From Escherichia coli (GTDB lineage Bacteria; Pseudomonadota; Gammaproteobacteria; Enterobacterales; Enterobacteriaceae): a DNA stretch of 64,000 nucleotides. The DNA lies in assembly GCF_003334785.1 (NCBI RefSeq), contig NZ_QOWV01000009.1. One strand, 5' to 3'. The notes beneath the pieces were generated by a model. The model was given only the letters and a program-made list of their open reading frames with translations, was not told the origin of the DNA and made no database searches. The position numbers were made by a program, and so were the translations under genes. Below are positions 50,654-53,030 of this stretch, in pieces. Position 1 is the stretch's first letter; the number at the start of each line of letters is the position of its first letter.

Positions 50654-50680
50654 GTTATAGTCTCGGTGCTCATTACTTAT

Positions 50681-50905
50681 TGCCGGATGCGGCGTGAACG
50701 CCTTATCCGCCCTACGCGGTTCTGGCACATTTTGCAGGCCTGATAAGACGCGGCAAGCGTCGCATCAGGCATCGGAGCACTTATTGCCGGATGCGGCGTG
50801 AACGCCTTATCCGGCCTACGGTTCTGGCACCTTTTGTAGGCCTGATAAGACGCGGCAAGCGTCGCATCAGGCCTGATAAGACGCGGCAAGCGTCGCATCA
50901 GGCAT
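50681..50905. repeat. BIME cluster (five REP units) between convergent araJ and mak
   Basis: Alternating units TGCCGGATGCGGCGTGAACGCCTTATCCG(C/G)CCTAC and AGGCCTGATAAGACGCGGCAAGCGTCGCATCAGGC; ~100-bp unit tandemly duplicated, last REP present twice in a row. Confidence 0.9.
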
Positions 50906-50928: not shown

Positions 50929-51837
50929 TTACTCTTGTGGCCATAACCACGCAGCGCCGCGTACGCCGCTGGAATCACCGTGCTTCGCCTTACGCACCGG
51001 CGTTTCACATTCGCCGCCGAAGACAAATTGTTTAATCAACTGCCCAACCGTTTGATATAAACGGTCTACATTGCTCATCCCGCCCCCCAGGACAATCACA
51101 TCCGGATCGAGAATATTCACGACATGTGCCAGCGATTTTGCCAGCCGCAGCTCGTAGCGACGCAATGCCAGTTCCGCTACCGGATCGCTTTCTTCAACCA
51201 GGCGGATAATTTCACTGCCTTTCAGCGCATGTCCGCTCAAACGACGATAATCCATCGCGAATCCCGTGCCCGAAATAAAGGTTTCAATACAACCTTGTTT
51301 ACCGCAATAACAAGGGACTTCCTCGCGATAACGCAGTTCGTCTTCGTCCATCCACGGTAGCGGATTGTGTCCCCACTCACCTGCCGTGCCATTGCCGCCG
51401 ATATGCGCCCGCCCATTGAATGCCACGCCCGCGCCGCATCCCGTGCCGATAATCACGGCAAATACCGTCTGCGCTCCCGCTGCCGCGCCATCTACTGCTT
51501 CTGAAACCGCCAGACAGTTAGCGTCATTTGCCAGCCGCACTTCCCGCTGCAACCTCGCGCTTAAGTCTTTATCGAATGGCTGACCGTTGAGCCAGGTTGA
51601 ATTGGCATTCTTCACCACACCGGTGTAAGGCGAAATTGAGCCAGGAATGCCCATACCTACCGTTCCGCGCTGCCCCGTCGCCTGCTCCGCCATATCAACC
51701 AACGTGGCGATCGTTTCAATAGTCTGCCGGTAATCATCACGCGGCGTGGGCAGACGATGGCGGTACAACTGCTCCCCTGCATCGCCCAGTGCAATCACTT
51801 CAGTTTTGGTGCCGCCTAAATCGATACCTATACGCAC
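50929..51837 (-). CDS. mak: Fructokinase / manno(fructo)kinase Mak, ROK family (302 aa)
   Basis: ORF track 50929..51975; start placed at the in-frame GTG at 51837 giving (M)[27 protein letters not shown]...; ROK zinc motif CYCGKQGC present. Confidence 0.9.
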
Positions 51838-51961
51838 GGTACTCTCCTTATTTTTTTCAATATTAATAGCGTAGAGACGGACAACCGGATTGGCAATGCA
51901 AGGCCGCCGACAATTCGTTATCATGCCCGCTAAATTTAACGACAAGGCCGTGGAAATTATC

Positions 51962-52873
51962 ATGCTGTGGTTCAAAAATTTAATGGTTTACCGTCTTAGC
52001 CGCGAGATTTCGCTGCGTGCAGAAGAGATGGAAAAACAGCTAGCCTCGATGGCATTTACCCCATGCGGCAGCCAGGACATGGCGAAGATGGGCTGGGTTC
52101 CTCCGATGGGATCGCACAGCGATGCGTTAACGCACGTTGCCAATGGTCAAATTGTTATCTGCGCGCGCAAAGAAGAAAAAATCCTCCCGTCTCCGGTGAT
52201 TAAACAGGCGCTGGAAGCGAAAATCGCCAAACTGGAAGCGGAACAGGCGCGTAAGCTGAAGAAAACCGAAAAAGATTCGCTGAAAGACGAAGTGCTGCAC
52301 TCTCTGCTGCCGCGTGCTTTCAGCCGTTTTAGCCAGACAATGATGTGGATCGACACGGTTAACGGTTTGATTATGGTGGACTGCGCCAGTGCCAAAAAAG
52401 CGGAAGATACGCTGGCATTACTGCGTAAAAGCCTGGGGTCGTTACCGGTTGTACCATTGAGCATGGAAAACCCGATTGAACTGACGCTGACCGAATGGGT
52501 TCGCTCCGGTAGTGCGGCACAGGGCTTCCAGCTGCTTGATGAAGCCGAGCTGAAATCGTTGCTGGAAGATGGCGGCGTGATCCGCGCGAAGAAACAAGAT
52601 CTGACCAGCGAAGAGATCACCAATCACATTGAAGCCGGAAAAGTGGTGACTAAACTGGCGCTCGACTGGCAGCAGCGCATTCAGTTTGTGATGTGCGACG
52701 ATGGTTCGCTCAAGCGTCTGAAGTTCTGCGACGAGCTGCGCGATCAAAACGAAGATATCGACCGTGAAGATTTCGCCCAGCGTTTTGATGCCGATTTCAT
52801 CCTGATGACTGGTGAACTGGCAGCGTTAATTCAAAACCTGATTGAAGGATTAGGTGGCGAAGCACAACGTTAA
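51962..52873 (+). CDS. rdgC: Recombination-associated nucleoid protein RdgC (303 aa)
   Basis: ORF track 51890..52873; start placed at ATG 51962 giving [45 protein letters not shown]... Confidence 0.93.
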
Positions 52874-52890
52874 TTGCTGATTTTCCTTTA

Positions 52891-52930
52891 ATGCCGGATG
52901 CGACGCCTGCCGCGTCTTATCCGGCGTACG
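52891..52930. repeat. REP element downstream of rdgC
   Basis: ATGCCGGATGCGACGCCTGCCGCGTCTTATCCGGCGTACG. Confidence 0.75.
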
Positions 52931-53030
52931 AAGCCACACCAGGCATATAATTATTCGCTACGGCGAGCAATAATTTTTAGCGCAGCAATATTATGCGTTT
53001 TACGCTGTAACTTGCTCCATGGACGTTGTG

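Follow-up and report, generated by a model that had tools for sequence, protein, structure and literature searches.

The closest described counterpart of the locus analyzed here is that of Escherichia coli K-12 MG1655, in which rdgC (b0393, NP_414927.1; 409108-410019, minus strand) and mak (b0394, NP_414928.2; 410144-411052, plus strand) are divergent genes separated by a gap of 124 bp. We take version 2 of NP_414928.2 to mean that the Mak record of MG1655 was revised. The K-12 Mak was reported to have fructose/mannose 6-kinase activity (Sproul et al. 2001, as cited in PMC10519446). It has the fold of the ROK-family sugar kinases (NagK, NanK, AlsK, and the Glk-type ROK glucokinases). Members of the ROK family carry an N-terminal ATP-binding motif, DxGxT, and a zinc motif, CxCGxxGC. 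In the solved NagK structures 7P7I, 2AP1, and 4DB3, the DxGxT strand lies 3 to 4 residues after the initiator Met.

For the control region between the two genes, the relevant systems are the divergent sigma-70 promoters of bacterial intergenic regions, which face outward and have separate -10s within a short spacer, and among which the back-to-back promoters have adjacent -35 hexamers. The symmetric bidirectional promoters of Warman et al. 2021 are said to be of another kind, with a shared, overlapping -10 region and starts approximately 18 bp apart. The mak/rdgC pair is unlike this symmetric type. It resembles the outward-facing divergent promoters, the rdgC half being predicted, and has the adjacent -35 hexamers of the back-to-back arrangement.

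We analyzed a window of 64,000 nucleotides (the whole stretch of DNA taken from contig NZ_QOWV01000009.1 of the E. coli assembly GCF_003334785.1), in which mak runs from 50929 to 51837 on the minus strand (302 aa plus stop) and rdgC from 51962 to 52873 on the plus strand (303 aa plus stop, with its ATG at 51962 to 51964). The mak coordinates were derived from the translation and are the same in the RefSeq annotation of an identical genome, and those of rdgC are supported by a profile match, identity to a PDB chain, and conservation. The genes are divergent, with a spacer of 124 bp (51838 to 51961) between them, and genes, starts, and spacer length are as in K-12 MG1655, from which the window differs at one of the 201 bases compared, spacer included (51864, plus-strand T in the window versus C in MG1655). 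The genome of E. coli strain FORC 064 matches the window at 100% over 601 compared bases, and its RefSeq/PGAP starts of mak and rdgC correspond to window positions 51837 and 51962. When the 601-bp junction was used as a query, 5425 of the 5426 complete E. coli genomes contained a match at 95 to 100% identity, with the features annotated as mak (fructokinase) and rdgC. The initial annotation had described mak and rdgC as divergent across 124 bp, and the coordinates were verified in the sequence and agree with RefSeq for both the identical genome and MG1655. We are highly confident that this is an ordinary divergent control region, with mak starting from the GTG at 51837, rdgC from the ATG at 51962, and two back-to-back promoters in between, that of rdgC being predicted. 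The GTG start of mak and the divergent junction are already known and annotated in current databases.

The identities of both genes were examined with protein family profiles and solved structures. The 348-aa open reading frame containing Mak matched the NCBIfam fructokinase equivalog NF007108 with 609.2 bits (cut-off, 443) over residues 47 to 347; the GTG lies no more than one residue from where the profile begins, and none of the 46 residues preceding it in the long frame is matched. Mak fell below the cut-offs for NagK, AlsK, NanK, and glucokinase, and it passed that of the fructokinase equivalog only. Its translation carries GIDLGGTK (residues 4 to 11) and CYCGKQGC, both of which align with the same motifs in the solved NagK structures. 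The solved NagK homologues open with MYYGFDIGGTK, aligned to the N-terminus of the GTG-started Mak, in which the DxGxT strand has the same distance from the initiator Met as in those structures. The window is near-identical to K-12 in the relevant region, and the kinase activity of the Mak encoded here is a prediction from its sequence. RdgC matched NF001460 with 664.4 bits (cut-off, 501) over its full length, residues 1 to 303 of 303, and is identical in sequence to PDB 2OWL chain A from residue 1 (MLWFKNL).

The start of mak is less evident from an open reading frame list, which gives a longer frame of 348 aa beginning with a TTG at 51975. As the initial annotation had pointed out, this version overlaps rdgC on the opposite strand, by 14 bp (51962 to 51975). 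Within it, the GTG at 51837 to 51835 (minus strand) is followed by CGT ATA GGT ATC GAT TTA GGC GGC ACC, which reads (M)RIGIDLGGT. Three in-frame candidate starts, which we regard as unused, lie upstream of this GTG in the region of 51922 to 51975 on the minus strand: TTG 51975 (348 aa), ATG 51963 (344 aa), and ATG 51924 (331 aa).

We compared the start region in 80 Enterobacterales loci from a scan of species-representative genomes, which extend from Escherichia to Serratia, Pantoea, and Erwinia and have 76 to 97% protein identity. The codon aligned to the mak codon 1 was a start codon in all 80 species (GTG in 73, ATG in 4, and TTG in 3), and a GAGG/AGGAG Shine-Dalgarno core is conserved across them 6 to 8 nt before the start. 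In the window, the Shine-Dalgarno sequence TAAGGAG, assigned by 16S pairing and conservation, is located at 51844 to 51850 on the minus strand, 6 nt before the GTG. Pairing of the 16S rRNA tail with the 20 nt before the mak GTG gave -9.7 kcal/mol, compared with a mean of -2.5 kcal/mol for 2000 random 20-mers from the window, 1.15% of which reached -9 or lower. This was the single quantitative control, gene boundaries not being a statistical feature to be set against chance. The same calculation before TTG 51975, ATG 51963, and ATG 51924 gave -3.1, +0.4, and -3.3 kcal/mol, respectively, and no Shine-Dalgarno sequence was found at any of the three.

Published initiation profiling in K-12 points to the same codon. 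In Table S2 of the INRI-seq study (PMC9825163), the annotated mak start (410144) has peaks of 37 to 73 CPM in five of five in vitro replicates, and the retapamulin (Ribo-RET) results that Meydan et al. 2019 obtained in vivo, included in the same table, have a peak of 14.4 CPM at the mak GTG that is flagged TRUE. By the criteria of the INRI-seq authors, approximately 18% of genes reach the in vivo Ribo-RET threshold (PMC9825163). An initiation complex at the K-12 mak GTG was detected both in vivo and in vitro, the in vitro templates spanning 30 nt upstream of each start and the far upstream mak ATGs lying outside them (PMC9825163). Neither mak nor rdgC had an entry among the TRAINSPOTTER N-terminomics matches listed.

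A rival possibility is that most Mak is a longer protein (348, 344, or 331 aa) initiated at one of the upstream TTG or ATG codons, in which case the two longest forms would overlap rdgC. In Escherichia, no stop interrupts the 50 codons preceding the GTG, among which are TTG 51975, ATG 51963, and ATG 51924. However, in-frame stops located 0 to 9 codons upstream of the mak start close the extension in 41 of the 80 species, and the spacers of 87 to 249 bp (rdgC being divergent from mak in 76 of the 80) vary in length by differences that are not multiples of 3, that is, out of frame. Also in favor of a longer protein, YajF was reportedly described as 344 aa in the original genome annotation and by Sproul et al. 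2001. The extension, however, matches no family profile or homologue, its candidate start codons have no Shine-Dalgarno sequence, and the in vivo initiation complexes in the data available are at the GTG, while the region upstream is conserved in the manner of a promoter. We therefore give next to no credence to a mainly longer Mak. The GTG start proposed in the initial annotation is upheld by database annotation, the 80-species comparison, the family and structure alignments, and the K-12 translation-initiation profiling.

The 348-aa version is an artefact, produced by a reading frame that stays open through promoter DNA, and not a gene product. Its extra 46 codons take in the promoter of mak, that predicted for rdgC, and the opening codons of rdgC, and it exists in Escherichia only because no stop happens to occur in this frame over the promoter DNA. 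The junction illustrates cleanly how a six-frame list of open reading frames, when a gene does not start with ATG, carries it too far upstream, through its own promoter. Comparative analysis of genomes together with public initiation and transcription start data settle the mak start, and the value of this result is mostly one of annotation hygiene.

Transcription start data placed a promoter immediately upstream of the mak GTG. The available part of the Cappable-seq list (PMC4782308) contains a K-12 plus-strand start at U00096.2 409344, with a score of 5.3, which is the only plus-strand start in the neighborhood. Kim et al. 2012 (PMC3415461) place mak at 409368-410276 in the same coordinate system as the Cappable-seq list, which puts this start 24 nt ahead of the GTG; mapped by alignment, it corresponds to an A at 51861 on the minus strand of the window. 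Accordingly, the checks named in the initial annotation, transcription start mapping and initiation data, came out in favor of the GTG, with the published Cappable-seq start at -24 and the INRI-seq/Ribo-RET peak at the GTG itself. Since the mapped start is at -24, the upstream in-frame ATG and TTG codons are not on that transcript, which also argues against the longer Mak versions.

Upstream of this start, a -10 hexamer, TACGCT, is found at 51868 to 51873 (minus strand), assigned from conservation and the position of the transcription start; it occupies -12 to -7, with the start 7 nt downstream of it, and has 3 of 6 consensus bases, including T1, A2, and T6. A -35 hexamer, TTGCCA, with 5 of 6 consensus bases and its mismatch at 51893, is found at 51891 to 51896 (minus strand), 17 bp upstream of TACGCT and within a conserved TTGCnn. 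In the direction of mak, the order is TTGCCA, 17 bp, TACGCT, 6 nt, the start A (51861), TTGAAAAAAATAAGGAGAGTACC, and GTG. These distances agree with those of sigma-70 promoters, i.e., hexamers 16 to 18 bp apart and a mapped start 6 to 8 nt past the -10. A simple promoter scan did not return TTGCCA-17-TACGCT because its -10 matches the consensus at 3 of 6 bases.

The same arrangement was found in other species. A pattern search recovered TTGCnn-17-TAnnnT in 47 of the 80 species, in each with a spacer of exactly 17 bp and with its end 30 to 34 nt ahead of the start codon. In an alignment of 23 mak/rdgC spacers of 123 to 128 bp (the window and 22 other loci), the -35 TTGCnn, the -10 TAnnnT, and the start region TTGATAwT were conserved, and the stretch between the -35 and the -10 was fixed in length and free in sequence. 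A fixed length of 17 bp combined with a variable sequence is the pattern of a promoter, not that of a coding region. Transcription of mak starts at 51861 with a 24-nt leader, in which the strong Shine-Dalgarno sequence TAAGGAG aids initiation at the GTG, and the weak -10 is consistent with a low basal expression of mak. An Rfam search of the spacer returned no family match at E values of up to 1, and a structured RNA was rejected.

The only difference from K-12 in the compared region, at 51864, falls at -3 relative to the start of mak transcription; read in the direction of mak, K-12 has TTGATAT here and the window has TTAATAT. The TAATAT created by this SNP was considered as an alternative mak -10 and rejected, as no acceptable -35 was seen by eye at 15 to 18 bp, and the mapped start fits TACGCT. 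Separately, loci with short spacers of 87 to 100 bp, from Citrobacter, Kosakonia, Kluyvera, Pluralibacter, and other genera, do not have TTGCnn-17-TAnnnT (L006-L008, L012, L013, L016, L018, L025, L026, L028, L029, L032, L033, L035-L042, and L061 in our set). The mak promoter of these genera must be arranged differently, possibly in closer overlap with the rdgC promoter.

A second transcription start has been assigned to mak. Kim et al. 2012 (PMC3415461) list it at NC_000913.2 409277, which corresponds to 51928 on the minus strand of the window and is 91 nt away from the GTG on its upstream side. The value given for it is 2, which we interpret as a read count, the mean in that paper being 107.8 reads per start. 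This very weak start, 4 nt before the in-frame ATG 51924, was the sole hint of the initiation at an upstream ATG that would have spoken for a longer Mak, and we treat it as a trace signal. Neither the data set of Kim et al. nor that of Cappable-seq, as far as each was available, reports the mak start of the other. The start at 51928 would allow for a mixed situation, in which the GTG form is the main product and a minor 331-aa proteoform arises from a rare transcript with a near-leaderless ATG 51924, which in Escherichia, Enterobacter, Lelliottia, and Leclercia is in frame and not separated from the GTG by a stop. However, the value of this transcription start is 2, where the mean is 107.8 reads, it is missing from the available Cappable-seq list, no convincing -35 for it was seen by eye, and the frame is kept in a few genera only. 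We thus consider such a proteoform very unlikely.

The ATG itself has another explanation. ATG 51924 (51924 to 51922, minus strand) is the complement of the predicted rdgC -10, TATCAT being the reverse complement of ATGATA, and this complementarity explains why several genera retain the ATG although it does not serve as a start codon. The same point weakens the case for this codon as a start of a mainly longer Mak. On a related matter of annotation, the mak orthologue KPN_00337 of Klebsiella pneumoniae MGH78578 is given as 948 bp, compared with 909 bp in E. coli (PMC3415461), probably because an older annotation over-extended its N-terminus in the same way.

On the other side of the spacer, the start of rdgC was also conserved. 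Of 76 species, 75 had ATG as codon 1 of rdgC and one had GTG, the motif MLWFKN was nearly invariant, and in-frame stops were found 3 to 9 codons upstream of the rdgC ATG in 30 of the 76 species. In the available INRI-seq data (PMC9825163), the annotated rdgC ATG has no peak in five replicates; small peaks are listed instead for a GTG at +5, out of frame, in two replicates, and for an ATT at -6, in frame, in one. These peaks of the rdgC start region fall within 51956 to 51970 of the window and carry the coordinates NC_000913.3 410013 and 410024. The Ribo-RET column is 0 for every minus-strand gene in the available part of Table S2 (PMC9825163), which looks like a processing artefact, and the 0 of rdgC is therefore uninformative. 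Because of these two circumstances, the rdgC start rests on conservation and structure.

The most conserved block of the spacer, in the direction of rdgC, is GACAATTCGTTATCATGCCCGCTG, which contains TATCAT followed by GCCCGC. We predict that TATCAT, at 51919 to 51924 on the plus strand, is the rdgC -10 and that GCCCGC, at 51925 to 51930, is its discriminator, both on the basis of conservation. A strict pattern, TATCAT or TATTAT and then GCCCGC or GCGCGC, matched in 63 of the 76 species, and the block is visible in most of the rest. A putative -35, ATGCAA, lies 17 bp upstream of TATCAT at 51896 to 51901 (plus strand) and matches 3 of 6 consensus bases; ATGCAA or ATGAAA was present at this distance in 61 of the 63 pattern-matched loci. 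The distance from the end of the -10 to the ATG was 33 to 38 nt in most genera and 51 to 55 nt in 14 further loci. From this pattern, the rdgC promoter is predicted to be ATGCAA-17-TATCAT plus GCCCGC, with a start near 51931 to 51933, and the leader would be approximately 30 nt long if counted from a start near 51931. Going by general promoter knowledge, the G+C-rich discriminator may point to control of rdgC by growth rate or by the stringent response.

An rdgC promoter located elsewhere, e.g., inside the mak coding region, would leave the spacer without both promoters. The weak -35, matching 3 of 6 consensus bases, is compatible with this, and so is the outcome of the scan, whose only plus-strand site, TTAACG-16-TATCAT at 51936 to 51963, was rejected as the rdgC promoter, for it ends inside the rdgC start codon and cannot serve the gene. 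However, TATCAT plus GCCCGC is the most conserved element of the spacer across genera and stands at a near-fixed distance from the rdgC ATG, and the substitutions of the -10 in other genera (TATTAT and TACTAT) retain T1, A2, and T6. We regard a location elsewhere as improbable. The SMRT-Cappable-seq supplements mention neither mak nor rdgC, and no start on the strand of rdgC was found in the available part of the Cappable-seq list (PMC4782308), whose displayed rows are all of the plus strand. The initial annotation had held that the short shared region must contain both promoters; this stood for mak, with its Cappable-seq start behind a conserved -35 and -10, and became plausible for rdgC, whose promoter in the spacer is deduced from the conserved TATCAT and discriminator.

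Taking the mak promoter together with the predicted rdgC promoter, two promoters of the sigma-70 type would stand back to back in the 124-bp spacer, with their starts approximately 70 bp apart. The mak -35 and the predicted rdgC -35 abut, with base 51896 being common to both. We attach very little weight to a trace of 331-aa Mak being made from 51928, or to the related idea that the promoters sharing 51896 compete for RNA polymerase, such that mak and rdgC would be inversely coupled.

In the 344-aa frame, codon 24 reads GCC (51894 to 51892, minus strand), and its middle base, 51893, is the sole mismatch of TTGCCA to the consensus -35. A change of GCC to GAC at this codon would turn TTGCCA into TTGACA. 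The activating Mak+ change of Sproul et al. 2001 was reportedly described as A24D. As the single mismatch of the -35, position 51893 is the obvious candidate site for a promoter-up Mak mutation. Promoter-up point mutations at the mak locus are reported to unlock a latent fructo/glucokinase activity (literature cited in PMC10519446). The TTGACA allele on the haplotype of the window was found in 0 of 5425 complete E. coli genomes at at least 99% identity, in a search in which combinations with a second SNP are indistinguishable.

Two features of the neighborhood were observed in addition. In E. coli E17, a clinical isolate (L002; NZ_CM143886.1, 3385-6385), the match to the window ends approximately 22 nt into rdgC, at about 51984, and an ISEcp1 transposase, blaCTX-M-14, and a partial IS5 transposase are found past the break; the rdgC of E17 is interrupted by a resistance transposition unit beside the mak promoter region, which is intact. 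In the window, the gap between araJ and mak (50675 to 50905) contains approximately five palindromic repeats of the REP type in a BIME-like array, and a single related REP, inverted relative to the upstream ones and with arms that are 82 to 91% complementary, lies just downstream of rdgC at 52884 to 52932.
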